This document shows, in pieces, positions 39,771 through 62,169 of a stretch of 64,000 nt of DNA. The position numbers and the translations under genes were made by a program. The DNA comes from Microbacter sp. (GTDB taxonomy: Bacteria > Bacteroidota > Bacteroidia > Bacteroidales > Paludibacteraceae): NCBI GenBank assembly GCA_049976245.1, contig JBMFIQ010000001.1, positions 1,265 through 65,264 of the forward strand. Direction: 5' to 3'. The first letter of the stretch is position 1; each line of letters begins with the position of its first letter. The notes under the pieces are model-generated. The model was not told the origin of the DNA. It searched no databases and saw only the letters and a list, made by a program, of their open reading frames with translations.

Positions 39771-42143
39771 ATGCAACCTCAGTCAAACTCAAAACCTGCG
39801 AATAAAAATGAAGAGATTGATATCGTAGAGTTATTGTTGTTTTATTTATCAAAATGGCGTTATTTTGTCATAGCCATCGTTGCTTGCATGGTTTTAGCCG
39901 TTGTTTACTTAAAGGTGGCAACCCCTAAATATCAGGTTAATGGAGCTATTTTGCTACGGACATCCGATAAAAACGATATCACTTCTCAACTTTCTCAATT
40001 GGGAGATTTTGGTTTGAATTTAGGCCAAAAGCAGGCCTCGGATGAAATTTATGTTATAAAATCTGAGCGTTTGATAGGTAAAATGATTACAAAACTGGGT
40101 TTACAGACACAATATTATATCCGTAAAGGATTAAAATATCAAGAACAATATCCGGTTCCTTCAATTAGTGTCACCATTCCTCAGTCATTGCTTGACAGTT
40201 TGTTGGAGCCGATAGAGATGACGATTACAAAAAAAGAAGATGTTTACCGAATCGATGCAGTTTATAAAAAGGAAAATAAAGAATTATACCATTGCATTAT
40301 CCGCCAAATCAACGGAAGCTATGTTACGCCATGGGGTAATATCACTTTTCAACAAAATAAACCAATGGAAGATGGGGATAAAATGAAAGTCATTATTTCT
40401 CCGTTGTCGAATCAAATTGAAGTATACGAAAAGGCTCTTTCGATTACTTTAGCACAGCGTGAATCGAACGTAATCAATCTGTCCATTGTGGTGGCCAATA
40501 AAATGAAAGGAAGAGATATTATCAATGCAATGATTTCGTTGTATAATCAGGATGCATTGAATGATAAAAATTTAATGGCAGCTCGGACGGCGGAGTTTGT
40601 AGATGAGCGTTTGAAAAAAATTACGAATGAACTGTCAACGGTTGAAAGTCAGGTTGAAGCTTATAAGGTTAGTCATAATTTGGTGGATATTCCGGCTCAG
40701 GCTCAAATGATATTGACCTCAGCCAATGAATATCAAAAGCAACTTGCTTCCATTGAAATTCAGTTAAACGGTGTGGATTGGGTTGAACAACAATTGCTTA
40801 GTCCCAAGACACAATATGCACTTATCCCGGCTAATTTGGGCATAGAAGACAAAGGTTTGATGGGTATTATTGCCGGTTATGATGATTTGTTGATGCAGCG
40901 GTTACGTCTTTTACGATCGACCAATCAGGACAATCCTGTGTTACAACAGTTAGAAACGCAAATCAAAATGACTCGTTCCAATATTTTGGCAAGTATTAAA
41001 AACGTACGTGAAGGGTTGACTATTACCAAAAATGACATCATTAAAAAGAATAATTCGTATTTAGCCAAAATTGATCAGGTACCTTCGATTGAACGGCAAT
41101 ACACTGAAATTAAACGGCAACAGGAAATCAAACAAAGTCTCTATCTTTTCTTATTGCAAAAGAGGGAAGAAAATGCATTATCGTTGGCCGCTGCCGTTTC
41201 TTCGACCAAAGTGGTTGATCCCGCTTTTGTTTCGCCTTTGCCTGTTTCTCCAAAACGAAACCTTGTGCTCATTGGGGCTTTTCTTCTTGCTATTTTCTTA
41301 ACCATTGGCTATTTGTATGTTTATGGTTTGATTCATAATAAAATCATTTCGCGCAAAGAAATTGAGAAAATGACATCGATCCCCATTCTGGGAGAAGTGG
41401 GTATTTTCAAAGGTGATGAAAGAATTTTGGTAAAAGAGGGATCAAATTCTAAATTTTCCGAAATGTTTAGAATGATTCGAACCAATCTGAATTTCTTATT
41501 GGCTGCAGAACAAGGGAAACGTGTATTGGTGACATCCAGCATTTCGGGGGAAGGGAAAACGGTGATTGCCATTAATCTTGCTCTTTCTTTTGCCATGTTG
41601 GGAAAGAAAGTGATTGTGGTGGGGATGGATGTTCGTGTTCCTCGTTTGGCTGGTTATACTCATTTGAAAGTAGATGGAGGCGTTACGAATTTTCTGATGG
41701 ATTCATCCATTGCTTTGGAATCTTTGATCTTTTCATCTGTCATTCATCCAAATTTATCTATTTTGCAGTCCGGACCTATACCTCCCAATCCGACTGAACT
41801 GTTAATGACTTCGAGGGTCGAGGAGTTGTTTGATCAATTGGACAGCATGTATGACATCATCATTGTTGATTCGGCGCCTGTGGGATTGGTGGCTGATACC
41901 TTCTCCTTGAATCGTGTTGCCAATGCGGTTGTGTTCGTTTGTCGTCAAGATGTTACTCCGAAACATTATATCAATCATTTGCATCAGTTGGAGCAACAGA
42001 AGCAGTTGAATAATGTAGGCATTGTGCTGAATGGGGTTGATATGAAAGCGGGTTATGGTTATCGTTATGGATATGGTGCGGTCGGGTACGATGAGAAAAA
42101 GAAAAAGAAGAAAAAAGCATCTTCCATATTGAAAAAAATCTAA
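39771..42143 (+). CDS. wzc: polysaccharide co-polymerase / tyrosine autokinase (Wzc-like)
   Basis: 790-aa ORF with a Wzz domain containing two TM helices and a coiled coil, Walker A (SSISGEGKT), Walker B (IIIVDSAPVG) and a C-terminal Tyr cluster (GYGYRYGYGAVGY). Confidence 0.88.
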   Translation: MQPQSNSKPANKNEEIDIVELLLFYLSKWRYFVIAIVACMVLAVVYLKVATPKYQVNGAILLRTSDKNDITSQLSQLGDFGLNLGQKQASDEIYVIKSERLIGKMITKLGLQTQYYIRKGLKYQEQYPVPSISVTIPQSLLDSLLEPIEMTITKKEDVYRIDAVYKKENKELYHCIIRQINGSYVTPWGNITFQQNKPMEDGDKMKVIISPLSNQIEVYEKALSITLAQRESNVINLSIVVANKMKGRDIINAMISLYNQDALNDKNLMAARTAEFVDERLKKITNELSTVESQVEAYKVSHNLVDIPAQAQMILTSANEYQKQLASIEIQLNGVDWVEQQLLSPKTQYALIPANLGIEDKGLMGIIAGYDDLLMQRLRLLRSTNQDNPVLQQLETQIKMTRSNILASIKNVREGLTITKNDIIKKNNSYLAKIDQVPSIERQYTEIKRQQEIKQSLYLFLLQKREENALSLAAAVSSTKVVDPAFVSPLPVSPKRNLVLIGAFLLAIFLTIGYLYVYGLIHNKIISRKEIEKMTSIPILGEVGIFKGDERILVKEGSNSKFSEMFRMIRTNLNFLLAAEQGKRVLVTSSISGEGKTVIAINLALSFAMLGKKVIVVGMDVRVPRLAGYTHLKVDGGVTNFLMDSSIALESLIFSSVIHPNLSILQSGPIPPNPTELLMTSRVEELFDQLDSMYDIIIVDSAPVGLVADTFSLNRVANAVVFVCRQDVTPKHYINHLHQLEQQKQLNNVGIVLNGVDMKAGYGYRYGYGAVGYDEKKKKKKKASSILKKI

Positions 42144-49926: not shown

Positions 49927-49934
49927 TATATTTG
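49927..49934 (+). promoter_or_regulatory. -7 box (TATATTTG) upstream of the T9SS cargo gene
   Basis: TAnnTTTG 39 nt upstream of ATG 49973, at the end of a very AT-rich spacer. Confidence 0.5.
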
Positions 49935-49972: not shown

Positions 49973-52900
49973 ATGAAAAAATCAATTACATTATTAAGAA
50001 CGTTGTTTTTTGTTTTGTTTTTACTCGTTGTAAACGGGGTTCTTTACGGACAAGCCTCTTTGCCTGTAAATGCCACGTTTTCATCAGTAACAACTTCAGG
50101 TCCTGGTACGATGCCTACCGGCTTTACCCAATCGGGCTTGGGTGGATATGCCGGTGCGTTGAAATTTGACACGCAAGGTGATTACTTGATTCTTTGGTTT
50201 GCCGGTACACCAGGTGTTTTGACATTTGATGTAGGAGTCAATATTACATTTCCGGGGAGTATTCCTTCAGGTGCAACTTTCACACTACAACAGTCGAACG
50301 ATGGAACTATTTATACCGATGTGGCCAATTACACAAACTGTTCAGGTGGAACTAAAACAATCAGCAATTTAAATGCAACGACCAGATATGTGAAATGGAT
50401 TTACAGCACTAAACGATCAGGGACAAATATTGCATTAAAGAATATTTCTCTGGCGGCTGCTTCTTCTTCCACAGGAATCATCTCCCTTTCGCCTGCTTCT
50501 TTGTCAGGGTTTACCTACGTTGAAGGGTCCGGCCCTTCATCTGAACAAACATTTACGCTTTCTGGCAGTAATTTGACAGCAGATGTTAGCTTGACAGCTT
50601 CGACAGATTTCGAAATTTCAAAAACTTCCGGTTCAGGTTATGCTTCACCGTTGGTTTTTACTCCATCGAACGGAACTTTGGATGCGACTACAATTTATGT
50701 CCGTTTGAAATCAGGATTGTCAGTCGGTAGTTATAGTAATGAAGCAATCACGGCTTCTTCAACAGGCGCTGACAACCAAACAATCACATGCAGCGGGAGC
50801 GTGACATCGCCTGTAAAACCAGAGCCCTCTGCTTATCCTACGTCGTTTACCGCCACTGCCAATTCGAGCAGTCAAATTACGATAACATGGACTGATGCTA
50901 CAGGCGGACAGGTCCCCGATGGCTATTTGGTGAAAGCATCAACGGGGACACCAACTGCACCGGTTGACGGCACTGCAGAATCAAATGGCGCATTGGTACT
51001 AAATGTTGCGCAAGGAACACAGCAAGCGGTATTTTCGGGTTTAGCAGCTTCAACAACATACAATGTTTCCATTTGGCCATACACCAATAGTGGCACTGCC
51101 ATCAATTATAAAACTGACGGAACTGAGCCTACCGCCACTGCAACGACCAACGCTTCGGCTTCTTATACTTGGAATCAAACGGGTTCTGCAGATTTTGGAA
51201 CAGCTTCTAATTGGACTCCGGCAAGAAGCAATCCCGATCCAACGGATGTTTTGGTCTTTAACAACGGAGCTGTCACTACCGTTACAGGCGTTTCGTCTCA
51301 AACCATTGGCGGATTGCTTGTATCGAATGGATCGAAAGTAACCTTTTCCAGTTCTGCCCCTGCAACGCTTACCATCAACAATGGCATAAGCGGTTTTGAT
51401 TTGACTGTAGATAACGGATGCGAATTAAATATTGCTCAAACCTCCGCAAATGCTTTTACAATAGCGATTGCTTCAGGAGCCACAGGGAGCATTTCCGGAT
51501 CGATGGATTTTTCGAGTACCACAGCCAATACCGTAAATCAAATTACAGCCGCTGACGCTTCAGGACTTATCTTCAATGCAGGAGCTCTATTTACCCAAAA
51601 TCTGAACAGTACAGGCAATGTCTTTGGGAGTGGCACAGCCAACAGTGTTGTGTTTGCAAACGGTTCAAGTTTTGTTCAATATGCAGGATCCAATCCTTTT
51701 CAAAAAACAGCTCCATCTTCAGTGGTTGTTTTTCAAACAGGGAGCTTGTTTAAGTTGAAAGGAAGTCTTTCTCCATCATTTTCGGGAAGAACATATGCGA
51801 ACGTGGAAATTGATGCTACCGGTAGTTTGATCTCTCCAACAGGAACTTCTGCTGTTGTCATGGACAACCTGACCATTACGAATGGGACATTGAATTTCAA
51901 TGTAACCGGAGCGCCCGGTCATATCATTAAAGGGAACATTTTCGTGGCGCCCGGAGCCACATTGAATTTTGCCCCTACTTCAGCAGGAACGGTCAATCTC
52001 GGCGGAAGTGCATTGCAAACCATTTCAGGAGGTGGCATCATCACCACTGCTACTAATTCAACTTTGAACATCAGTAATAATGCCGGTGTTATGATTGACA
52101 ACAATGCTGTTATTGGTGGTAATTTAACCATTGCAAGCGGTGCATCCTGCAGTCTTAATCCAGCCCGACAACTTACCGTTTCAGGTACTTTAACAAACAA
52201 CGGGACGTTGAATTTGTTGTCCGATGGAACCTATGGAACAGCTACCATTACAGGAACGGTTAACGGCAGTGGGACGACCAACGTAACTCAGGTTCTTGGG
52301 GCCGACCGTAACTGGTATTTGTCATCACCGGTGAGTAATGCAGCTATACCGGATGCCGATCAGGTTTGGTATTATGACGAAACGGTGGTCAGTGCTAACG
52401 CCAATGATAGTTGGAAATCGCCTACCGGATTGTTGCAAGTTGGAAGAGGTTACATTGTCAATCCTAAAGCAGACGCTATCGATCATATTATTTTCAGTGG
52501 GCTTTTGAACAGCGGTGATCAACCGGCGATCACTTTGACGCGGACTTCAACCAAAACAAATTATGTTGGGTTTAATTTATTAGGAAATCCCTACGCTTCA
52601 TTTTTGAATGTCAATGCGTTGATGAATGATCCGGACAATACAGGCAGCGTGTTGCCTACCATCTGGTATCGTACCAAGAATGGTAGCGCATGGTCATTCC
52701 CAACATTTAATGCATCCTCCGGAATCGGAGTTCCGGCTGACAACCTTGGATTCATTCCTCCTATGCAGGCTTTTTGGGTTCGTGCTACAACAGACGGCGT
52801 TTCATTTCATTTTAAGGAGGCTTTTCGGATTCACAACACCACCAATTCTCCGATAGCCTTTAAATCTTCTCCTGCACCGTTCAATAAAGTGTTGCGCTTG

Positions 52901-53557
52901 CAGGTAGCTGCCGGTGACAATACCGATCAGGCCGTGATTTACTTCAATCCTGGCGCTTCGAATGGTTTGGATGATTACGATTCGCCTAAAATGCTGAATG
53001 GAAGCACATCGACACTTCCCGATCTTTACACTTCCGAAGGGAACGAACCCTTGATTATTAACGGGATGGATACCATTCCTTACGATACGGAAATTCCCTT
53101 GACGCTCAATGCCAATGCAGCGCCGACCAGCACCTTTACCATATCGGCATTGGAATTCAGCAATTTTGATCCGAATACACATGCTTATTTGATCGATCAC
53201 GACACCAACAGCAAAACGGATTTGACGACGGACACCTACACCTTTACGTCAGATGGCACGATGAGTTCTCGATTTTCGGTTTTGTTCACATCGTCCAATC
53301 CGGCTACGAAAATTGGGACAACCACAAGCGGAGTACTACAGGTTTACACCACGAACGATCATGCCATTGTAGTGAGTTGCAACGTCAATGGATCAGGGGC
53401 GCAACGGGTGAACGTGTACAATTCGATGGGCGAATTGATCTATTCGAAAACATTTACCGGAAGCCAGTTGATCACTCCAGCGATGAATGAAGGGATGTAT
53501 GTGGTGGAATGGATGAACCAAACCGGCCGACAAATCAGGAAAGTCATGGTGCATTAA
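49973..53557 (+). CDS. large secreted T9SS cargo protein (Ig-like + FN3-like + beta-helix-like repeats + C-terminal sorting domain)
   Basis: 1194-aa ORF with a signal peptide (LFFVLFLLVVNGVLYGQA). An FN3-like segment is present (SSQITITWTDATGGQVPDGYLVKAS...TTYNVSIWPY). A long Gly/Asn/Thr-rich repetitive region suggests a beta-helix. The last ~70 aa (..VNVYNSMGELIYSKTF...GMYVVEWMNQTGRQIRKVMVH) match the Por_Secre_tail / T9SS type A CTD pattern. Confidence 0.8.
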   Translation: MKKSITLLRTLFFVLFLLVVNGVLYGQASLPVNATFSSVTTSGPGTMPTGFTQSGLGGYAGALKFDTQGDYLILWFAGTPGVLTFDVGVNITFPGSIPSGATFTLQQSNDGTIYTDVANYTNCSGGTKTISNLNATTRYVKWIYSTKRSGTNIALKNISLAAASSSTGIISLSPASLSGFTYVEGSGPSSEQTFTLSGSNLTADVSLTASTDFEISKTSGSGYASPLVFTPSNGTLDATTIYVRLKSGLSVGSYSNEAITASSTGADNQTITCSGSVTSPVKPEPSAYPTSFTATANSSSQITITWTDATGGQVPDGYLVKASTGTPTAPVDGTAESNGALVLNVAQGTQQAVFSGLAASTTYNVSIWPYTNSGTAINYKTDGTEPTATATTNASASYTWNQTGSADFGTASNWTPARSNPDPTDVLVFNNGAVTTVTGVSSQTIGGLLVSNGSKVTFSSSAPATLTINNGISGFDLTVDNGCELNIAQTSANAFTIAIASGATGSISGSMDFSSTTANTVNQITAADASGLIFNAGALFTQNLNSTGNVFGSGTANSVVFANGSSFVQYAGSNPFQKTAPSSVVVFQTGSLFKLKGSLSPSFSGRTYANVEIDATGSLISPTGTSAVVMDNLTITNGTLNFNVTGAPGHIIKGNIFVAPGATLNFAPTSAGTVNLGGSALQTISGGGIITTATNSTLNISNNAGVMIDNNAVIGGNLTIASGASCSLNPARQLTVSGTLTNNGTLNLLSDGTYGTATITGTVNGSGTTNVTQVLGADRNWYLSSPVSNAAIPDADQVWYYDETVVSANANDSWKSPTGLLQVGRGYIVNPKADAIDHIIFSGLLNSGDQPAITLTRTSTKTNYVGFNLLGNPYASFLNVNALMNDPDNTGSVLPTIWYRTKNGSAWSFPTFNASSGIGVPADNLGFIPPMQAFWVRATTDGVSFHFKEAFRIHNTTNSPIAFKSSPAPFNKVLRLQVAAGDNTDQAVIYFNPGASNGLDDYDSPKMLNGSTSTLPDLYTSEGNEPLIINGMDTIPYDTEIPLTLNANAAPTSTFTISALEFSNFDPNTHAYLIDHDTNSKTDLTTDTYTFTSDGTMSSRFSVLFTSSNPATKIGTTTSGVLQVYTTNDHAIVVSCNVNGSGAQRVNVYNSMGELIYSKTFTGSQLITPAMNEGMYVVEWMNQTGRQIRKVMVH

Positions 53558-53627: not shown

Positions 53628-53786
53628 ATGAAACGTATTTATATCGCCCCCGAAATTGAAACCATCCAATTAGATCATGAAATCTCTTTAGCGTTGGAAT
53701 CGACCCCGCCGAATGGGCCTGACGAAACTTTAAACACCCGGGAACATTTCACTCCAAATGATCCATATAATCCGACATTGACCTAA
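53628..53786 (+). CDS. candidate RiPP precursor peptide (52 aa), unannotated sORF
   Basis: Hand translation gives MKRIYIAPEIETIQLDHEISLALESTPPNGPDETLNTREHFTPNDPYNPTLT*. It has an A-rich Bacteroidota-style translation start and a lasso-leader-like Y-x-x-P-x-I-x-x-I motif. It sits immediately upstream of PqqD, kinase and peptidase-ABC genes and is followed by an intrinsic terminator. Confidence 0.6.
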   Translation: MKRIYIAPEIETIQLDHEISLALESTPPNGPDETLNTREHFTPNDPYNPTLT

Positions 53787-53802: not shown

Positions 53803-53842
53803 AAAAAACCGTCTGTAGCCTTTTAGTTCGGACGGTTTTTTT
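53803..53842 (+). terminator. intrinsic terminator/attenuator directly after the precursor sORF
   Basis: AAAAAACCGTC (53803-13) / GACGGTTTTTTT (53831-42): the CCGTC/GACGG stem, extendable through A:T pairs, is followed by a T7 run. Confidence 0.65.
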
Positions 53843-53874: not shown

Positions 53875-53882
53875 TATATTTG
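53875..53882 (+). promoter_or_regulatory. -7 box (TATATTTG) upstream of the PqqD-kinase-ABC genes
   Basis: TAnnTTTG 34 nt upstream of ATG 53916. Confidence 0.45.
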
Positions 53883-53915: not shown

Positions 53916-54206
53916 ATGAATTTTGAACAATTAAAAGCATTAAAATCTCATTTTGTTTCTAAAGAAGTAGGCGATGAACTTGTTTTAGTGCCGCTGACAA
54001 ATAATGTCGTTCAGATGAATGAACTTTTTACGCTCAATGAAACCGGTCGGTTTATTTGGCAAAACAGCGACAACGTTGAGGACATCGATCGAATGGCCAC
54101 TTTAATGACCGATGCTTTCGACATTGATCGTGAAACTGCACAAAAGGATATTTCAAACTTTTTAGATCGAATTGCTACTTTATTCATTAAAAAACGCAGC
54201 CTATAA
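53916..54206 (+). CDS. PqqD-family protein (RiPP recognition element-like peptide chaperone)
   Basis: 96-aa ORF. Its size and pattern (..GDELVLVPL....MNELFTLNETGRFIWQ......DIDRMATLMTDAFDIDRETAQKDISNFLDRI) are typical of stand-alone PqqD/RRE proteins such as lasso B1. Confidence 0.75.
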   Translation: MNFEQLKALKSHFVSKEVGDELVLVPLTNNVVQMNELFTLNETGRFIWQNSDNVEDIDRMATLMTDAFDIDRETAQKDISNFLDRIATLFIKKRSL

Positions 54207-54213
54207 ATTTGAA

Positions 54214-55071
54214 ATGCCTGTCAAAACACTTTCCATTGCCGGCATCGTTGTTCAACTTCGTTCCGATTCCCCTTTTATGCTGGAAGAAGGTTATTTGCCT
54301 TTTGTCGTGAACAATGCCTTTTTGCCATCCGTTCTTATTGATTGCCATTTGGGAATTCCACCTTCCGTGATTCCTGTTTCTACTCCTGTTTTTGAGGCCA
54401 AAACTGAAGTTCAACAATTTTATGCCGTTTACGATCGCGGAAGTGAAGGATTGCTTTTTCAAATTTTTGATCAGCAGGATGGCAAAACGCAGCAGATAGC
54501 CATTAGCAATGCGACTTTTGATCAATGGGAAATATTTTCGGAATCGATGAACGGGATGCTTATTCCCTTAAAATTTCCTCTCGGCCCCATCATCATTCAC
54601 TATATGGCGTTGAATTTGGAAGCCGTTTTGATGCATGCTTCATGTGTTTTCGATGGGCAGAAAGGGCGTTTGTTCAGCGGTTTTTCAGGCGCAGGCAAAA
54701 GCACCATTTCACGCATATTCTCAAAATCGGGTCAAACTGTGGTGAATGATGACAGAATCCTGATTCGGAAAGAAAAAGGGAACTTTATTGCTTACAATAC
54801 GCCGATGTATTATGTCGATCAACCCAAAAATGCCTCATTGGATGCCATTTATTTGATTCATCACTCGCCAGAAAATAGCATAAAACAATTAACGGGAGCA
54901 TTGGCTGTGACAAAAGTAATGGCTTTTTGCATTCAAAATAATTTTGATCGACAATTTGTGAATGCGCGGTTGAACTTTTTTGTCGAACTGTGCTCTAAAG
55001 TGAAGGTTTATGAACTTGGTTTTGTCCCTGACAAAAGCGTTGTGGATTTTATTTCACAACATGCTGAATGA
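54214..55071 (+). CDS. HPr-kinase-like P-loop serine/threonine kinase (lasso-precursor-kinase-like)
   Basis: ORF track 54172..55071. The likely start is ATG 54214, 7 nt after the PqqD stop. LMHASCVFDGQKGRLFSGFSGAGKSTISRIF...GQTVVNDDRILI mirrors the HprK C-terminal kinase core (HA..V...G.G.L..G.SG.GKS.....L...G..LV.DD). Confidence 0.7.
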   Translation: MPVKTLSIAGIVVQLRSDSPFMLEEGYLPFVVNNAFLPSVLIDCHLGIPPSVIPVSTPVFEAKTEVQQFYAVYDRGSEGLLFQIFDQQDGKTQQIAISNATFDQWEIFSESMNGMLIPLKFPLGPIIIHYMALNLEAVLMHASCVFDGQKGRLFSGFSGAGKSTISRIFSKSGQTVVNDDRILIRKEKGNFIAYNTPMYYVDQPKNASLDAIYLIHHSPENSIKQLTGALAVTKVMAFCIQNNFDRQFVNARLNFFVELCSKVKVYELGFVPDKSVVDFISQHAE

Positions 55072-55130
55072 TGGCATAAAGAACAGAAACCGGATTGCTA
55101 TTTTCCCTTGCAAAGAACAAAGATTCAAGT

Positions 55131-57368
55131 ATGACAAAACTGACCGGAAAAGAACCATTGATCCATTTAGCCGAAGCGCTGCTTGAAGGTGACCATTCGG
55201 TGAGTTTTGTGATGCAGGGCTACAGCATGTATCCAACGTTGCGTCCGTCTGACAAAGGGTTGGTCGAAAAATGTCATCCAAAAGACCTTCGAAAAGGGGA
55301 CATCCTTGTTTTTCGACAAGATCAACAATGGATTGCGCACCGACTCATGCAGATCAAAGTCACGGAAAATGGCACTACGTTTTTGACAAAAGGAGATCGG
55401 CTTAAAACGTTTGATGCGCCTGTTGATGAAAAAGCCGTTGTGGGAAAGGTGATCGCTTATGAACGACACAACAAAACCGTCTCATTGAATGGATTGGTTT
55501 TAAGAAAGCAATTTGTATTGCATTTTCCAACCTTCAGTGCAAGACTTTTTAGCATGGAATTATCCATCCTGCTGCAATTTCTCCATACCAGAGAAAGCAT
55601 TGCCCGTTTGATTAAGCATGTCAAGCTGTTTTTGCAAGGTTCAGTCAGGATTTTTCTCATCAATAGCTTGATTTCCGTGCTTCAGGGAGTTGTTCCGTTG
55701 TTGACCATTGTGTCCATCAAAATGCTTATTGATCAAATTGGAAAGGCTTCTCTTCAAGGCAGTTCAGTCTATGTCCTTTTCTGGCTGATCATTACAGGCT
55801 CTCTTTTTCTTTTGGCAGGGATATTGACCGAGATGTCAGGATTCTTTTTAGAGAAAATGGAACAATCGGTTTCGCGCATGGTTTATCGCAGTATGCACGA
55901 CAAACACGCAACGATTCCGCTGGCAGCCTACGAAATACCGACAGAGCAGGATAAAATGCATCGTGCCGTTCAGGAGGCGTCATTTCGTCCTTTGAAATGG
56001 TTGAATGAACTTTTGGGGTTGATACGTTCCGTTACGGGATCTCTGTTGTTAGCCGTAATTTTTTTGACCATTCGGTGGTATTTACCCATCATTTTGTTAG
56101 TTGCCGTTTTGCCTGGTGTGGTTGTACGACTTCGGTATGCTCGCCGTAACTACCGGCTCAAAACAGCCCAAAGTACCCAAGAGCGTGCCTTGTACTATTT
56201 TAATCGTGTCTTGACAGCTTTTCCGTTTGCTAAAGAGCTGCGACTTTTTCATTTTTCCGACTACTTTAAAACAAAATTCTCGACGGTACAGGAAGATTTG
56301 TTTGCGGAGAAATTATCGCTTAGAAAAGCGGAAATGACGGGCGGGATTTTGACACAACTCTTTGCCGTCATGGTCATTTTTGGGAGCATGGGATTGTTCT
56401 CTTATCTGAGCTTGAACAATTCAGTTAGCGTGGGCACGGTGGTGCTGTTTTTCTTTGCCTTTCAACGTGGATATGCCGTGGTGAATGAGCTTTTTCAATC
56501 CATTATCCGAATTTCACAGGATAATATATTTTTGGACGATGTGAGTGCGTTTTTGCAACAATCACAAGATGTTGAAAATAAACAACATGATCGCGTATTT
56601 TCATTAAAAAAAGAAATCCGATTTGAACAAGCCTCGTTCAGTTATGCGCACAGCGGACGCCAAGCATTGAAGAATATTGATTTGATTATTCCTGTGGGTA
56701 AAAAAGTGGCGTTTGTCGGCGAAAACGGCTCGGGAAAAACAACCACAGTCAAATTGCTTTGCGGATTTTACTATCCCGACAGCGGCAAAGTGACTTACGA
56801 CGGCATTTCTACCACCGAGTTCAACCCATCTGCAATCTTGGAACACATTGCTGCCGTTTTTCAGGATTTTGCACTTTACAATCTCACCGCCCTCGAAAAC
56901 ATCGGATTAGGCAATGTGGCTTCGCCCGTCAATTTGGAGAAGACGCAGTTGGCAGCACAAAAAGCCGGTATTCATGATGTGTTGAACAAACTTCCTCGCG
57001 GTTATCATCATCTATTGGGCAATTTGTTTGAAGGAGGAGAAGAGTTGAGCATGGGTCAGTGGCAAAAAATGGCTTTAGCCAGAGCTTTTTATAGAGATTC
57101 GGAATTGATTGTCTTGGATGAGCCTTCCAGTGCGCTCGACGCTCATGCCGAAAAACAAATGGTCAATGCACTTCGCAGGCTTACCGCCGACAAAACTGCC
57201 GTCATTGTCAGTCATCGGTTGTCCACCGTGCAATGGGCAGACAAAATTTACTTTTTTCACGATGGTGAAGTTCGAGAAGAGGGCACGCACACTGAATTGA
57301 TGGCGCTGAAAGGAGGTTATTATCAATTGTTTAACGCCGTCAATAGTGGCAATGATGGTCATGAATAA
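55131..57368 (+). CDS. fusion protein: N-terminal SipW/Sec11-type (S26) signal-peptidase-like domain + ABC exporter (TMD + NBD)
   Basis: ORF track 55095..57368 (TTG). The likely start is ATG 55131. The N-terminal ~130 aa carry GYSMYPTL (SPase Ser box), GDILVFR, IAHRL (His box of ER/archaeal-type SPases) and TKGD. Multiple TM helices follow. The NBD has Walker A GENGSGKTT, signature LSMGQWQK, Walker B LIVLDEPSSALD and H-loop VSHR. Confidence 0.75.
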   Translation: MTKLTGKEPLIHLAEALLEGDHSVSFVMQGYSMYPTLRPSDKGLVEKCHPKDLRKGDILVFRQDQQWIAHRLMQIKVTENGTTFLTKGDRLKTFDAPVDEKAVVGKVIAYERHNKTVSLNGLVLRKQFVLHFPTFSARLFSMELSILLQFLHTRESIARLIKHVKLFLQGSVRIFLINSLISVLQGVVPLLTIVSIKMLIDQIGKASLQGSSVYVLFWLIITGSLFLLAGILTEMSGFFLEKMEQSVSRMVYRSMHDKHATIPLAAYEIPTEQDKMHRAVQEASFRPLKWLNELLGLIRSVTGSLLLAVIFLTIRWYLPIILLVAVLPGVVVRLRYARRNYRLKTAQSTQERALYYFNRVLTAFPFAKELRLFHFSDYFKTKFSTVQEDLFAEKLSLRKAEMTGGILTQLFAVMVIFGSMGLFSYLSLNNSVSVGTVVLFFFAFQRGYAVVNELFQSIIRISQDNIFLDDVSAFLQQSQDVENKQHDRVFSLKKEIRFEQASFSYAHSGRQALKNIDLIIPVGKKVAFVGENGSGKTTTVKLLCGFYYPDSGKVTYDGISTTEFNPSAILEHIAAVFQDFALYNLTALENIGLGNVASPVNLEKTQLAAQKAGIHDVLNKLPRGYHHLLGNLFEGGEELSMGQWQKMALARAFYRDSELIVLDEPSSALDAHAEKQMVNALRRLTADKTAVIVSHRLSTVQWADKIYFFHDGEVREEGTHTELMALKGGYYQLFNAVNSGNDGHE

Positions 57369-57615
57369 ATGTTTGACACTCCGATTTCTCAATGTATTGC
57401 ATCATCAGCTTGGCGAATGATTGAATGAACTTTTCCGGAAAATGGAACTTTTGGTGCCGCTTTTTTGATCAGAGGATGGATTTTTGTTAAATATTATTTT
57501 AACAGAATGTTTTAACATAAAAAAATTGCAAAAATTCATCTTTTATGCGTAACTTTTTCGTCTGAATTTTAGTGTGTTATTTTCACCACTTTCAGAAGAT
57601 AAGGAGGAAACAATT

Positions 57616-58260
57616 ATGACAACAAAACAGCCTTTAATCATTACCATCAGTCGACAGTTAGGTTCGGGTGGGGCATACATCGGGCAGTTGATTGCAAGAT
57701 ATTTTGACATTCTTTACGCCGATCGTGACATCATTGCCGACACAGCCAAAACATTATCGCTCCATCCTAAAGACATTGCTCATCGTGACGAGAAAATGAT
57801 TTCCGGATGGGAATCATTTATTCAAGCCATTACTCGACCTCCCGAACGGATTGAATTCAAGCCGTTTCCTCCTACCGATAAAGAACTTTTTAAGGCTGAA
57901 AGTGAAGTCATTAGGCGTTTGGCTTTTGAACGTTCTGCCGTGATCATGGGTCGCTGTGGTTCGTGCATCCTTCATGACCATCCCAATCTGATCAGTGTCT
58001 TTTTACATGCAAGCGATGAGTTCCGCATCAAACATCTTTGCGATGTTCACCAGATGTCGGAAGTCAAAGCAAAAAAAACCATTGTGGAATACGACAAGGC
58101 CAGAGGAGCTTTTATCAAACAGTTTACCGGCGTGGACTGGAAAGATGCCACGCACTATCATCTTACTTTTAAAACAGACCTTCTTGGTCTTGACACAACG
58201 GCTAAAGAAATCATCAATGTCGTTGAAACCATGTTGTCCAAAAAAGAACAGCTTCTTTAA
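57616..58260 (+). CDS. cytidylate-kinase-like family protein (AAA/P-loop, function unknown)
   Basis: ORF track 57574..58260 (GTG). The likely start is ATG 57616 (MTTKQPLIITISRQLGSGGAYIGQLIA), preceded by AAGGAGG at 57601-57607. The pattern resembles the Cytidylate_kin2 family. Confidence 0.65.
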   Translation: MTTKQPLIITISRQLGSGGAYIGQLIARYFDILYADRDIIADTAKTLSLHPKDIAHRDEKMISGWESFIQAITRPPERIEFKPFPPTDKELFKAESEVIRRLAFERSAVIMGRCGSCILHDHPNLISVFLHASDEFRIKHLCDVHQMSEVKAKKTIVEYDKARGAFIKQFTGVDWKDATHYHLTFKTDLLGLDTTAKEIINVVETMLSKKEQLL

Positions 58261-58588: not shown

Positions 58589-60772
58589 ATGAACATCGAA
58601 ACAAAGATTCGCCTAAAAGCTGCCGGTTTGTACATGATCACAGCCATTGTTGTTGTGGCGATGTTAATCTTTCTGTTTAACCTGAGAAAAAACCTTGCCC
58701 ATCAGCAGGCAGTGATAGCGAAACAACGTCAAAAATTGACGCTTACCAATGAATTGATTTATGATGTTAATGAGGCTCAGTCGGCTGTCAGCCTCTTTTT
58801 TACTACTCATGACACAACCCACGTTATCCGTTTTAGGAAAAAATTGTTGTCGATTGATGCATTGATTGATACGCTTAGCGTCATTGAACCTGAAGGGAAG
58901 GGAAAATTATTGCAAATCAAACAATTGCTTTCCCGTCAAGCCTCGAATATCTTGGCTTTAAATCGGCTTTTGAATAATGAAAATCCCATTACGTCCATCA
59001 ATAAAAGTATTCTTCAATATAAACCTCAACAAAATGTCACAACTCAGATAGCCAACATTCGACGCGACACGTTATATCAGCCATCAAAGAAGAAAAAGGG
59101 TTTTTTTAGGCGAATCAAAGAAGTTTTTAGCCCTGAAAAAAGTACCACGATGGTTATTTCCAATGTGCGGGTGGATACCGTTCGGGTAGAGCAAGTCAAT
59201 CCGGCTCCCGTATTGACGGATGTAAAAAAGCTGGTGACAATGGCAGGTCAACGGTATGATCAGAAGATTCGTGAAATAGCGCAACAAGTTGCCAATCAAA
59301 TGATGTCTGACAGGGAAATTTCCACGCAAGTGGCTAACTTGTTGTTGGCGCTTCATCGCGAAACACTTCAATCCATGCTTTCCGGTATAGATGCCGGCGA
59401 ACGTTCCATTGATCGAAACTATACCTTTTCCATCATTGGCAGCATGGTGGCTTTAGGCTTTATCCTGTTTTTCATTCTGCTCATCATTTACGACGTCAAC
59501 AAAGGGAAAGAAGCCCGAGAAAAACTTCGTCAGGTCATGGAAAGCCGCCATCAACTGCTGCTCTCCGTTTCACACGACATTAAAAGTCCTTTGGGATCCA
59601 TTTTGGGGTATCTTGAATTGCATCGTTTCAGCGAAGATGAAATCCATTCCATGCAAAATTCCGCGCGTCTTATTCAATCGTTGCTTGACAATCTACTGGA
59701 ATATTCGAGCCTCGAACAAGGATCATTGCAATGCTCTTTTTCTACATTTGATCTTCATGAATTAGGAGAAGAAATCAATCAACTGTTTTTGCCTTTGGCT
59801 CAGGCTAAACTAATAGCATTGACCTGCACTTCGGATCGGATTCGTCTTATTTCGGATGCCGTGAAAATCAGACAAATCATCATCAATCTGGTTTCTAATG
59901 CCGTGAAATATACTCGACAAGGTACGGTTCAACTTGCCATGACTTATGTTGATCAACAATTGTGCATTGAGGTGAAGGACACCGGAGCCGGGATTCCCAG
60001 GGACAAGTTGAATGAAATTTACAAGCCTTTTGTGCGGATTGAAAGCAACAATGCACTGGCACACGGTACAGGCTTGGGAATGTTTGTGGTGAAAGGACTC
60101 ATCGACCTGTTGGGAGGCACCATTCGGCTTGCCTCTGCCGTGGGAGAAGGCACTTCCGTAACCGTAAAGATTCCGTGCAATAAAGCAGAAAGCAAAATCA
60201 AGCAGGGAGCCAAACGCATTGCCGTGTTTGATGATGATCCGACCATTGTGAAGATGGCCGGCGAGATGCTTACGCGTTTGGGACATACGGTTACGGAAAA
60301 AGATTATGAAATGATTTTAACCGATTTGGAAATGGGACCCGTTTCGGGGAAAGATATTCTGACGTCGGCAGGATCCATCCCAGTCATTGTGATGACGGGG
60401 CATACTGATTTTACCCTCGAAAAGGCGCTTCAAATGGGATTTGCCGACTTCCTCCCAAAACCTTTTTTCATCGATTCACTTCGCGAAATTTTTGGTGAAG
60501 GGACAAGCAGTTCCGATGATTTTTCACCCGAAGCTGACGACGCTGTGATGAAGTTGTTCCGATCGGCTACTGTCGAACACCAAGAATGGTTAAAACAGGC
60601 GTTGGCCGATGATGACTTTGACAAAGCTCAGGCTGTTTGCCACAAGATGTTGCCTATGTTCACGTTGTTGGGTTATCCCACTGATGCCTTGCGCCGCATG
60701 GATGCTCAGCGTGCAAAAGTTTATGAGGGCTGGCAAAAAGATGTTGAGACTGTTTTGAGTATTAAAATTTAA
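58589..60772 (+). CDS. hybrid sensor histidine kinase (HisKA-HATPase-REC-Hpt)
   Basis: 727-aa ORF with TM helices and a coiled-coil sensor region, an H-box (SHDIKSPLGSI), N/G boxes (NLVSNAVKYT, DTGAGI, GTGLGM), a receiver (VFDDDP..ILTDLEMG..KPF) and a C-terminal Hpt-like His (CHKMLPMFTLLGY). Confidence 0.88.
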   Translation: MNIETKIRLKAAGLYMITAIVVVAMLIFLFNLRKNLAHQQAVIAKQRQKLTLTNELIYDVNEAQSAVSLFFTTHDTTHVIRFRKKLLSIDALIDTLSVIEPEGKGKLLQIKQLLSRQASNILALNRLLNNENPITSINKSILQYKPQQNVTTQIANIRRDTLYQPSKKKKGFFRRIKEVFSPEKSTTMVISNVRVDTVRVEQVNPAPVLTDVKKLVTMAGQRYDQKIREIAQQVANQMMSDREISTQVANLLLALHRETLQSMLSGIDAGERSIDRNYTFSIIGSMVALGFILFFILLIIYDVNKGKEAREKLRQVMESRHQLLLSVSHDIKSPLGSILGYLELHRFSEDEIHSMQNSARLIQSLLDNLLEYSSLEQGSLQCSFSTFDLHELGEEINQLFLPLAQAKLIALTCTSDRIRLISDAVKIRQIIINLVSNAVKYTRQGTVQLAMTYVDQQLCIEVKDTGAGIPRDKLNEIYKPFVRIESNNALAHGTGLGMFVVKGLIDLLGGTIRLASAVGEGTSVTVKIPCNKAESKIKQGAKRIAVFDDDPTIVKMAGEMLTRLGHTVTEKDYEMILTDLEMGPVSGKDILTSAGSIPVIVMTGHTDFTLEKALQMGFADFLPKPFFIDSLREIFGEGTSSSDDFSPEADDAVMKLFRSATVEHQEWLKQALADDDFDKAQAVCHKMLPMFTLLGYPTDALRRMDAQRAKVYEGWQKDVETVLSIKI

Positions 60773-62075
60773 TGCCGTAATGGTGCATTTTGTTGTAAAG
60801 TGTCTTTCGGTCAATTTTTAGCAACCGTGCGGCTAAGGTTTTATTGCCTCCGGCTTTACGCAAGGCGGTTTCTATTTGTACCCGTTCGTTTTCGGGCTGC
60901 AAGGTCAAAGTTTCCGTTGGTTGCGGCGTAAGCATAAAAGCAGGCATTTCGTTGGCCGTGATTTGGTCATTTGAGGCAAAGAGTACCAAACGTCTTACCG
61001 TGTTGCGCAATTCACGCAGATTGCCGCTCCAATGATGTTGTTCAAGCAATTTCATGGCTTCAGGGGAAAACCCGCGTACCGATTTGTCCAATTCTTCATT
61101 CGCCTGATGAAGAAACGCGTTGGCAAAAAGTTCAATGTCTCCTTTTCGTTCCCGAATGGGCGGGACAAAGAGTGAAAATTCGTTGAGACGGTGAAAAAGA
61201 TCTTCGCGAAAACGACCTTCGGCAATGGCTGTACTCAAATCTTCGTTGGTAGCCGCAAGAATACGTACATCCACCTTGATGTCTTTGGCTGAACCAACCG
61301 GTCGAACACTCTGTTCCTGTAGAGTTCGGAGCAATTGTATCTGCACGTCGTATGACAAATTCCCTACTTCATCCAAAAAAACGGTTCCATGATTGGCTTG
61401 TTCAAAAATGCCTGTTTTGTTGTCAATGGCCGATGTGAATGAGCCTTTGAGATGGCCAAAGAGTTCGCTTGGAGCCAGTTCACGCGACAAACTGCCACAA
61501 TCGACGGCAATAAAAGGATTGTTGCGGCGGGGACTGTTGTCGTGAATCATGCGGGCTGCATACTCTTTGCCTGTCCCGCTTTCTCCAACGATTAAGACCG
61601 ACATGCGGGTGGGAGCAACCCGCAGGATGTGATCGTACATTTGAACGGCAAGGGGACTTTTGCCCAAAATCATGGATGAAGTTTTGGGTAGTGCCGTTTT
61701 CTCCAAAGATGGTTTTTTGGAAAGCGCCAATTCAATTTTTTCTTTCAAAACGGAAGGGTTCATCGGTTTTTCCAAAAAATCCTCAGCGCCCAATTTCATT
61801 GCTGCCACAGCGCTTTGAATTTCACCGTAACTTGTCATGATGATCACTGGAATGGCCATTTTACGTTCCCTGAGCCAGTGTAACAACATTAGGCCATCAC
61901 CATCAGGCAAACGTAAATCGCTCAGCAATAAATGAAAATCGCTACGTGTCATTGCGGCCTGAGCTGATGCAACGCCATTGCAAAGTGCTGCCTCAAAACC
62001 ATGACGATGACACCAGCTTTGCAACATGGTTCCAAAGGCTGTGTCATCGTCAATGATTAGGATTCGCTGTTTCAT
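60762..62075 (-). CDS. sigma-54-dependent response regulator (NtrC family)
   Basis: ORF track 60762..62126. The likely start is ATG 62075 (MKQRILIIDDD). It has a receiver, an AAA+ domain with GESGTGKE, a GAFTGA-like loop (GSFTSA), ELFGH, and a C-terminal Fis-type HTH. Confidence 0.9.
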   Translation of the reverse strand: MKQRILIIDDDTAFGTMLQSWCHRHGFEAALCNGVASAQAAMTRSDFHLLLSDLRLPDGDGLMLLHWLRERKMAIPVIIMTSYGEIQSAVAAMKLGAEDFLEKPMNPSVLKEKIELALSKKPSLEKTALPKTSSMILGKSPLAVQMYDHILRVAPTRMSVLIVGESGTGKEYAARMIHDNSPRRNNPFIAVDCGSLSRELAPSELFGHLKGSFTSAIDNKTGIFEQANHGTVFLDEVGNLSYDVQIQLLRTLQEQSVRPVGSAKDIKVDVRILAATNEDLSTAIAEGRFREDLFHRLNEFSLFVPPIRERKGDIELFANAFLHQANEELDKSVRGFSPEAMKLLEQHHWSGNLRELRNTVRRLVLFASNDQITANEMPAFMLTPQPTETLTLQPENERVQIETALRKAGGNKTLAARLLKIDRKTLYNKMHHYGIKF

Positions 62076-62169
62076 ACAAGGAACAAAGATAGAAAAAATT
62101 CGTCGATTTGTTCCTTGTGCGATCAAAAACAGCTTGTTCTATTAACTGATTATCATGGCAGTGTGTTTG

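Follow-up and report, generated by a model that had tools for sequence, protein, structure and literature searches.

This locus raises the question of what a signal-peptidase-like domain is doing at the front of an ATP-binding cassette (ABC) exporter. The window analysed here, a 64,000-nucleotide stretch of contig JBMFIQ010000001.1 from the Microbacter sp. assembly GCA_049976245.1, encodes a 745-amino-acid protein in which a Sec11/SipW-type (MEROPS S26B) peptidase domain is followed by a half-transporter. Peptidase-containing ABC exporters (PCATs) carry an N-terminal cytoplasmic C39 cysteine protease; S26 peptidases are normally membrane-anchored with an extracytoplasmic active site, and to our knowledge the peptidase-containing ABC exporters known so far are all of the C39 type. 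A first-pass annotation had proposed that the S26-like domain is cytoplasmic and plays the leader-cleaving role of C39. Homology, conservation, topology and synteny support this proposal: the fusion is probably a bifunctional peptide maturation-and-export protein. The same annotation spoke of an apparently convergent maturation-and-export solution, which stands in so far as the protein would be a serine-protease analogue of the PCATs, but it is best described as an LppS-LppD-type joining of two proteins, which occur separately in the pathway published for linear polyphosphorylated peptides (LPPs) of Bacillota (Popov et al., Nat Commun 2026; PMC13381572).

An anchorless S26B domain on an ABC exporter

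The fusion gene is divided as follows, with the evidence in brackets.

55131..57368, + strand: whole gene, S26B peptidase–ABC exporter fusion, 745 amino acids (open reading frame (ORF) calling, domain searches, NCBI match)
55131..55490, + strand: anchorless Sec11/SipW-type (S26B) peptidase domain, N-terminal (TIGR02228, PDB matches, AlphaFold2/Foldseek, conservation)
55224-55226, + strand: Ser32 codon (catalytic residue alignment)
55338-55340, + strand: His70 codon (catalytic residue alignment)
55395-55397, + strand: Asp89 codon (catalytic residue alignment)
55413-55415, + strand: Asp95 codon (catalytic residue alignment)
55491..55640, + strand: basic linker, helices 123-131 and 133-167 (AlphaFold2, hydropathy, LppS alignment)
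55641..56555, + strand: transmembrane (TM) domain, six long helices (residues 172-475), type IV/ABCB (MsbA/PCAT1-like) fold (AlphaFold2, hydropathy, alignments)
56613..57368, + strand: nucleotide-binding domain (NBD) (Pfam, conservation, AlphaFold2)

ORF calling in the window places the ATG start codon at 55131 and the stop codon at 57366-57368. An alternative in-frame TTG at 55095 would extend the N-terminus by only 12 non-hydrophobic residues, and the ATG is the start position in homologues of the fusion protein too. The NCBI entry for the identical protein reads 'MAG: signal peptidase I [Microbacter sp.]', a name that is misleading for this family, of which over 120 protein clusters, formed at 90% identity, show the full 745-residue architecture. 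When homologues were sought by a word-indexed search, the N-domain by itself gave no matches; the full-length protein was then used as query, and conservation was read from 40 full-length homologues with 45-62% identity.

All four S26B boxes reported at first pass are present in the N-terminal domain, namely GYSMYPTL (residues 30-37), GDILVFR (56-62), IAHRL (68-72) and TKGD (86-89), and the resemblance to signal peptidases is far beyond chance. The domain matches the NCBIfam model of archaeal-type signal peptidase I, TIGR02228, with 63.4 bits (cutoff 51.85, E 2e-17), and the bacterial-type model with 29.1 bits only. When PDB sequences were searched with phmmer, the sole meaningful matches were human SEC11C and SEC11A, whose catalytic residues are matched by Ser of GYSMYP, His of IAHRL and Asp of TKGD. 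An AlphaFold2 model of residues 1-170, with 31 homologues as input, has a mean predicted local distance difference test (pLDDT) score of 92 and consists of an N-terminal helix (residues 7-19) followed by a beta-barrel. Comparison with Sec11 and LexA folds, an idea of the first-pass annotation, ranked SEC11C (7p2q, E 5e-5) and SEC11A (7p2p) first among Foldseek matches in the PDB, then S. pyogenes SipA, S. aureus SpsB and, lower down, the C-domains of LexA and UmuD.

The presence of LexA and UmuD among the fold matches, together with a Pfam match to Peptidase_S24, would suit a self-cleaving module, in which autoproteolysis within the linker releases or regulates the transporter. We regard this as very improbable: the general base would be His70 as in Sec11 rather than the Lys of S24, SEC11 ranks above LexA by sequence as well as by fold, the linker is devoid of an invariant Ala-Gly-type site, and stand-alone homologues of the domain have nothing to release. 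As judged from the alignments, the active site is of the S26B Ser-His(-Asp) type and not an S24 Ser-Lys dyad.

Residues G30, S32, M33, P35, D41, G56, D57, H70, R71, G88, D89, D95 and G105 are invariant in 40 of 40 homologues. Among them, Ser32, His70, Asp89 and Asp95 form an intact catalytic tetrad that matches the four essential residues of yeast Sec11. This bears on a second possibility, that the domain is a non-catalytic docking site for the leader, like the C39-like domains of HlyB or the inactive S. pyogenes SipA, and that the leader is removed elsewhere or never. SipA is indeed among the top structural matches, and the HlyB domains are a familiar precedent for degenerate peptidase domains on ABC exporters. 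Such invariance of the Ser, the His and both Asp residues, kept also in distant stand-alone relatives, is nevertheless unexpected for a decayed site, and the homologue LppS is catalytically active, its S29A, H68A and D93A variants having lost cleavage (PMC13381572). A docking-only domain is therefore improbable, if slightly less so than a self-cleaving one.

Topology is the next point at which the fusion could depart from a PCAT. In a family-mean 19-residue Kyte-Doolittle scan, residues 1-165 contain no hydrophobic segment (maximum 0.63), in agreement with the first-pass remark that no TM helix precedes the domain, and beyond them come six hydrophobic peaks, in the stretch from residue 175 to residue 442. 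The linker (residues 113-170) is strongly basic, with a family average of 10.8 Lys and Arg vs 2.5 Asp and Glu; it is too weakly hydrophobic for a membrane span, and its homologue in stand-alone LppS-type peptidases is their C-terminal tail. Lys and Arg are nearly absent from the short loops TM1-2, TM3-4 and TM5-6. This charge pattern is, on sequence grounds, that of a positive-inside, N-in six-helix exporter. Because the topology is the standard N-in one, with no extra TM segment and a basic linker, the peptidase domain is predicted to lie in the cytoplasm, as the first-pass annotation held, at the site where PCATs carry their C39 domain.

An ordinary signal peptidase I fused to a transporter, with its catalytic domain in the periplasm, would account for the TIGR02228 score above cutoff and for the NCBI name. 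It is barely credible here, since the domain is preceded by neither signal sequence nor TM anchor, is separated from the necessarily cytoplasmic ATPase by six TM helices, an even number, and is followed by a basic linker. The same genome scan also recovered canonical archaeal signal peptidases; these do carry an N-terminal TM anchor, whereas the fusion N-domain and its relatives in peptide-processing contexts do not.

The transporter half is the six-helix exporter domain with canonical NBD described at first pass. The other 575 residues align over their full length with residues 49-576 of MsbA and 219-722 of PCAT1. A full-length AlphaFold2 model (pLDDT 79.5) has six long helices at residues 172-475 and then the NBD; its top two structural matches are MsbA and PCAT1, followed by Atm1 and TM287/288. 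Walker A (G530-T538), the signature (L639-Q645), Walker B (D663-E664) and the H-loop (H695) are invariant in the 40 homologues, and by these motifs the ATPase is complete. The protein is probably an ABCB-type half-transporter acting as a homodimer, each subunit with its own N-terminal peptidase.

The conserved module and its likeness to the LPP pathway

Two further genes are needed to read the fusion, one of them encoding a recognition element for ribosomally synthesised peptides with post-translational modifications (RiPPs).

53916..54206, + strand: PqqD-family RiPP recognition element (RRE), 96 amino acids (Pfam PqqD, E 1e-13)
54214..55071, + strand: HprK/P-like P-loop kinase, 285 amino acids (weak HprK and PEPCK P-loop matches, alignment)

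The fusion gene is the last of this three-gene module of RRE, kinase and S26B-ABC. The survey of spread and neighbourhoods suggested at first pass, done by scanning genomes at species level with the N-domain profile and looking up three contigs, yielded 28 close loci, all of them in Bacteroidales (Paludibacter, Porphyromonas, Microbacter-like). The PqqD and HprK-like genes lie directly 5' of the fusion gene in 27 of the 28, the last being a truncated contig. In the loci inspected in detail the flanking genes vary between ribosomal proteins, an MFS transporter or proteins of the type IX secretion system (T9SS), and the three genes therefore constitute a conserved unit; no further conserved gene was found beyond it in homologous loci. 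The first-pass annotation missed this module, as it did a candidate substrate 1.3 kb upstream and the relation to the LPP proteins.

The closest solved relative of the RRE is the lasso B1 protein TbiB1. In an alignment of 19 homologues of the 285-residue protein, H141, S158-G159-x-G161-K162-S163-T164 and D179 are invariant. Because a profile search aligns these residues with the His, P-loop and Asp-Asp of L. casei HprK/P (1jb1), the protein is very probably an active kinase. The peptidase domain thus faces a different setting from C39: almost certainly it does not work alone, but within the PqqD-RRE/HprK-like-kinase module.

A comparable set of proteins makes up the LPP core: an SpI-like peptidase LppS, a discrete RRE LppB, an HprK-like kinase LppK, an NTP-transferase LppN and an MsbA-like exporter LppD, acting on the precursor LppA (PMC13381572). 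LppS removes the leader, which has the motif YxxPxVLxHQxIxFET/xxS (the slash marking cleavage), only when the RRE is present; an AlphaFold3 model with support from mutagenesis has the RRE-leader sheet docked on the N-terminal helix of LppS (PMC13381572). LppK polyphosphorylates Ser3 of the core, and the precursor, when unphosphorylated, is cut inefficiently (PMC13381572). In Bacilli the clusters are reported to lie in capsular polysaccharide loci, and LppS to be poorly soluble (PMC13381572).

The N-domain of the fusion aligns with Paenibacillus LppS at 26% identity over 131 residues (pairwise BLASTP, E 1e-13), and the alignment runs on into the hydrophobic LppS C-tail, which in the fusion is the linker before TM1. 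The catalytic spacing S32-H70-D95 is close to S29-H68-D93 of LppS; both peptidases have an N-terminal helix, both are accompanied by a discrete RRE and an HprK-like kinase, and neither system has a macrolactam cyclase. The two differ in that peptidase and exporter form one polypeptide here, but are separate in the LPP system, and in that the NTP-transferase gene of the LPP core set has no counterpart, no NTP_transf family having been found at 39.7-64 kb of the window. Sequence identity is low, both to LppS and to LppB, and the module occurs in Bacteroidota.

Popov et al. state that SpI-like peptidases are new to RiPP pathways and that LPPs are restricted to Bacillota (PMC13381572). The strings 'Bacteroid', 'transmembrane' and 'cytoplasm' are absent from the main text of that paper, in which 'fused' refers to tags only. 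Its Supplementary Data 1 does list, in cluster 8 of the sequence similarity network, a protein of the cultured Paludibacter propionicigenes (WP_013444635.1, 747 amino acids) and a Porphyromonadaceae protein of 743 amino acids, both with an adjacent RRE and with 'ND' in all further columns (PMC13381572); the fusion proteins were therefore collected by the LPP authors, but never analysed. A search of the literature found no description of an S26 or signal-peptidase–ABC exporter fusion, and a 2023 review on RiPP leader proteases leaves S24, S26 and signal peptidases unmentioned. New here are the peptidase–exporter fusion architecture, its Bacteroidota (and wider) distribution, the lack of an NTP-transferase, and the way in which peptide genes are paired with those of T9SS proteins, described below.

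Candidate substrates and their T9SS partners

The region upstream of the RRE gene contains the following features.

53628..53786, + strand: candidate precursor peptide, 52 amino acids, 1.3 kb upstream of the fusion gene (leader motif, family alignment)
53806..53842, + strand: terminator-like hairpin and U-run directly 3' of the peptide gene (folding, -18.4 kcal/mol, z -3.3)
49973..53557, + strand: large T9SS-tail protein, 1194 amino acids, fn3 and T9SS C-terminal sorting domain (Pfam)

The 52-residue peptide has the leader Y5-x-x-P8-x-I-x-x-I-x-L-D16-x-x-I-S-L-x-L-x-S25, followed by a Pro-rich core, TPPNGPDE...NDPYNP. Across the family, Y5, P8, D16 and S25 are invariant and the consensus is YxSPxIExIxLDxxISLxLxS-xPPxGPxE...NDPF. 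The window peptide also gives a pairwise match (E 2e-4) to one LPP precursor, with YxAPE and a C-terminal DPYxP in common, a spacing 5 residues longer and Pro at core position +3. Its putative cleavage context, L-x-L-E-S/, resembles I-x-F-E-T/ of LppA: positions -5 and -3 from the cut are hydrophobic, -2 is acidic and -1 is a hydroxyl residue, and the context also fits the -3/-1 rule of signal peptidases.

Among close loci with enough upstream sequence, the peptide gene lies directly 5' of PqqD in 7 of 20. We also searched metagenomes with a hand-made degenerate DNA pattern for the leader and obtained 120 loci with 125 peptide ORFs. Where at least 4 kb of downstream sequence was available, an S26 ORF was present in the same locus for 8 of 49 peptide ORFs, and where at least 1 kb lay upstream, a homologue of the C-terminal ~500 residues of the large T9SS protein was immediately upstream on the same strand for 66 of 84. 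The pairing is nearly constant among L002, L004, L005, L019, L023, L026, L030, L047, L052 and L085-L204 as well as in the window, and a single contig may hold several T9SS-protein/peptide pairs (three at L002; two each at L113, L114 and L200). Stand-alone S26B homologues of other Bacteroidota (L030, L047, L052) likewise adjoin pairs of large protein and peptide. The picture is of a single processing module in a genome that has many peptide genes, each of them preceded by a T9SS protein gene. In LPP clusters, by contrast, the peptide genes are embedded in capsule loci.

These data show an enriched linkage of the peptide family to the module. The linkage to T9SS genes is tighter, and the assignment of substrate therefore rests on this enrichment together with the leader motif; on that footing, peptides of 50-60 residues with a YxxP leader, such as the one at 53628-53786, are the likely substrates.

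The LppS-LppD-type reading can then be spelled out as a route. By homology, the RRE would bind a precursor of ~50-60 residues (for example that at 53628-53786) through its YxxPxI leader motif, and the kinase would modify this precursor, most likely by (poly)phosphorylation of Ser or Thr. The RRE-leader complex would then dock on the peptidase domain at its conserved N-terminal helix, as in LppS, and Ser32 and His70 would cut off the leader, most likely after the invariant Ser25 (L-x-L-E-S/), a site that mirrors I-x-F-E-T/ of LppA and obeys the -3/-1 rule. The core peptide would finally pass directly into the attached exporter and so reach the periplasm. As an alternative within this scheme, Ser25 might itself be the phospho-acceptor, with cleavage a few residues upstream.

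Several observations weigh against this route. The Pfam matches of the N-domain to Peptidase_S24 (PF00717) and Peptidase_S26 (PF10502) stay below the gathering thresholds, the RRE falls below the cutoffs of all NCBIfam RRE models and gives a weak pairwise match to LppB (E 4e-5), and the full-length AlphaFold2 model has a predicted template modelling (pTM) score of 0.64. The distance from YxxP to the putative site exceeds that of LppA by 5 residues, and core position +3 is a nearly invariant Pro, without a counterpart of the Ser3 phosphorylated by LppK. Adjacency of the peptide gene to the module is not a rule, being seen at roughly one locus in three, and the gene is tied far more tightly to that of the large T9SS protein. 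Finally, no membrane-fusion protein or outer-membrane factor was found at 39.7-64 kb of the window, which leaves the route across the outer membrane unexplained.

Some of these points would fit a peptidase that is active and cytoplasmic but does not have the YxxP peptides as its substrate, the exporter carrying another peptide, a lipid or a glycan (as MsbA does) and the peptidase processing an unrelated cytoplasmic protein in the manner of SodX. In its favour are MsbA as the best NCBIfam match of the transporter part, a weak match to the SodX model TIGR02754, and the lack of a nearby peptide gene in 13 of 20 loci, this gene sitting instead behind T9SS protein genes. Yet the MsbA and SodX scores are both far below cutoff (for SodX, 20.9 bits against the N-domain, cutoff 63.25), and the invariable RRE partner implies a leader-bearing peptide. 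Moreover, YxxP, the motif bound by such RREs, is present in the sole conserved small ORF near the module, YxxP peptides are also encoded next to independent stand-alone S26B homologues, and LppS provides a precedent (PMC13381572). We therefore hold a different substrate to be unlikely, though less far-fetched than the alternatives weighed above; all of them are less likely than the LppS-LppD-type reading.

The hairpin at 53806-53842 was revealed by folding and was not picked up by a consensus terminator scan. Bacteroidetes-type TAnnTTTG motifs occur at 53875-53882, 34 nt 5' of the PqqD start, and at 49927-49934, 46 nt 5' of the start of the large protein, although the frequency of this motif in the window is at chance level. 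Taken together with the hairpin, these motifs suggest two transcription units, one of the large protein and the peptide, the other of the RRE, kinase and fusion genes. Downstream of the module are a cytidylate-kinase-like AAA ATPase (57574-58260), a hybrid sensor histidine kinase (58589-60772) and a convergent sigma-54 response regulator (60762-62126), none of which is kept beside the module at the further loci that were looked at. At 39771-42143 a Wzz/GNVR/CbiA-type polysaccharide co-polymerase tyrosine kinase is encoded; a link to a capsule locus through this gene is doubtful, because it is ~12 kb upstream of the module with housekeeping genes between.

Relatives of the fusion and what it means

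Among established systems, the PCATs, or AMS transporters (PCAT1, ComA, LahT, NukT), have the same layout, with a cytoplasmic N-terminal peptidase directly before TM1 of an ABCB-type half-transporter and leader removal coupled to export, as is predicted here. They differ in having a C39 papain-like cysteine peptidase, which is not among the Pfam matches of the fusion, instead of an S26B serine peptidase, and in cutting after a double glycine, whereas the candidate peptides have L-x-S and no GG, GA or GS motif at a conserved position; a separate RRE is probably needed here. Scores against the PCAT models of NCBIfam are low (TIGR01193, 164 vs a cutoff of 523.85; TIGR03796, 232 vs 853.3), and the protein was rejected as a canonical PCAT for want of a C39 domain and a GG leader. 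With Sec11, SipW and archaeal signal peptidase I the domain shares the fold, the Ser-His-Asp-Asp residues and the TIGR02228 match, but it lacks the N-terminal anchor, its active site is predicted to be cytoplasmic, and its proposed substrate is a RiPP-type leader rather than a Sec signal peptide. SodX, which removes the N-terminal leader of nickel superoxide dismutase in the cytoplasm, is also an anchorless S26-family peptidase; its substrate and genomic context are unrelated.

Paeninodin-type lasso clusters (B1, B2, C, HprK-like kinase, D) similarly combine a discrete RRE, a YxxP leader, an HprK-like kinase and an ABC exporter. Domain searches found no lasso cyclase, B2 protease or radical SAM enzyme at 39.7-64 kb of the window, and neither a lasso cyclase nor a transglutaminase-type B2 protease in any of the 28 loci. 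A lasso-peptide cluster was rejected on these grounds, and the product should therefore be linear. SynChlorMet systems (ScmA, ScmC, ScmD, ScmE/F) are approached through distant stand-alone S26B relatives, which occur in Scm-like cassettes with an HprK-like ScmC, a PqqD-like ScmD and YxxP-type precursors. Membership of the window module itself was rejected: its proteins score below cutoff for ScmC (17.8 vs 125) and ScmD (17.4 vs 100), ScmA has no match, and there is no radical SAM/SPASM gene.

An exhaustive profile search returned 8,564 cluster representatives at E<=1e-10, canonical signal peptidases included. The top 150 are mostly proteins of ~150 residues with the same N-terminal helix, no N-terminal anchor and a hydrophobic or amphipathic C-terminal tail. 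This tail can be aligned to the linker before TM1 in the fusion protein and to the LppS C-tail, and may be a membrane-surface or exporter-docking element. In metagenome-assembled genomes (MAGs) of deltaproteobacteria, Nitrospirota, Lentisphaerota and Omnitrophota, anchorless S26B genes stand beside HprK-like, PqqD-like and radical SAM/SPASM genes, and small ORFs at these loci start with KKPYxxPxL... and have a Cys-rich core.

SynChlorMet-like cassettes with a stand-alone S26B gene were noted at L036, L037, L040, L046, L058, L060, L061 and L056 (deltaproteobacterial, Nitrospirota, Lentisphaerota and Fibrobacterota MAGs), with precursors of the form KKPYxxPxLxxVxLxxxQAIL(S/T) and a Cys-rich core, which suggests that the same type of leader peptidase serves radical-SAM RiPPs; L036 is so classed because it has a ScmF match of 355 bits and a ScmA-like precursor. 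Other fusions also occur. In a Planctomycetia MAG, a 688-residue fusion of S26, ABC_membrane and ABC_tran (L049:7980-10046) lies 3' of PqqD, HprK-like and two radical SAM genes. Because its ABC part is only distantly related to that of Bacteroidales, the S26-ABC fusion may have arisen more than once. An Omnitrophota MAG encodes an anchorless S26B domain fused to GNAT (acetyltransferase) and NTP_transf_5 (nucleotidyltransferase, LppN/paeninodin-type) domains (L031:7926-9821), near which are genes for PqqD, an HprK-like protein and radical SAM enzymes and, on the minus strand at 1538-1729, one for a YxxP precursor.

A wider reading joins these strands, and we offer it tentatively, as possible rather than probable. 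The module would then not be of bacteriocin type, but would mature small Pro-rich peptides and export them across the inner membrane, these peptides being obligately co-encoded with T9SS surface proteins, several pairs and one module per genome. Once exported, the peptide would work on its partner or together with it, in the periplasm or on the cell surface; it might, for example, serve as a cofactor or in-trans chaperone, or ride across the outer membrane as a passenger of the T9SS cargo. Anchorless S26B peptidases, whether free-standing or joined to ABC, GNAT or NTP-transferase domains, would make up a class of RRE-dependent leader peptidases that spans phyla and takes in those of SynChlorMet-type radical-SAM cassettes. 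If so, RiPP-type processing would be linked to type IX secretion.

For the LppS-LppD-type reading, the consequences are nearer at hand. An LPP-type pathway would extend beyond Bacillota to Bacteroidota and, through looser relatives, to Planctomycetota, Nitrospirota, Omnitrophota and delta-proteobacterial lineages. That the two proteins are naturally fused argues that LppS-type peptidases act at the cytoplasmic face of the exporter, and may explain why LppS is poorly soluble. With a serine S26B version beside the C39 one, the coupling of leader removal to export would have arisen at least twice from unrelated protease folds. The pairing of peptide and T9SS genes, lastly, offers a lead to the biological role of these peptides.

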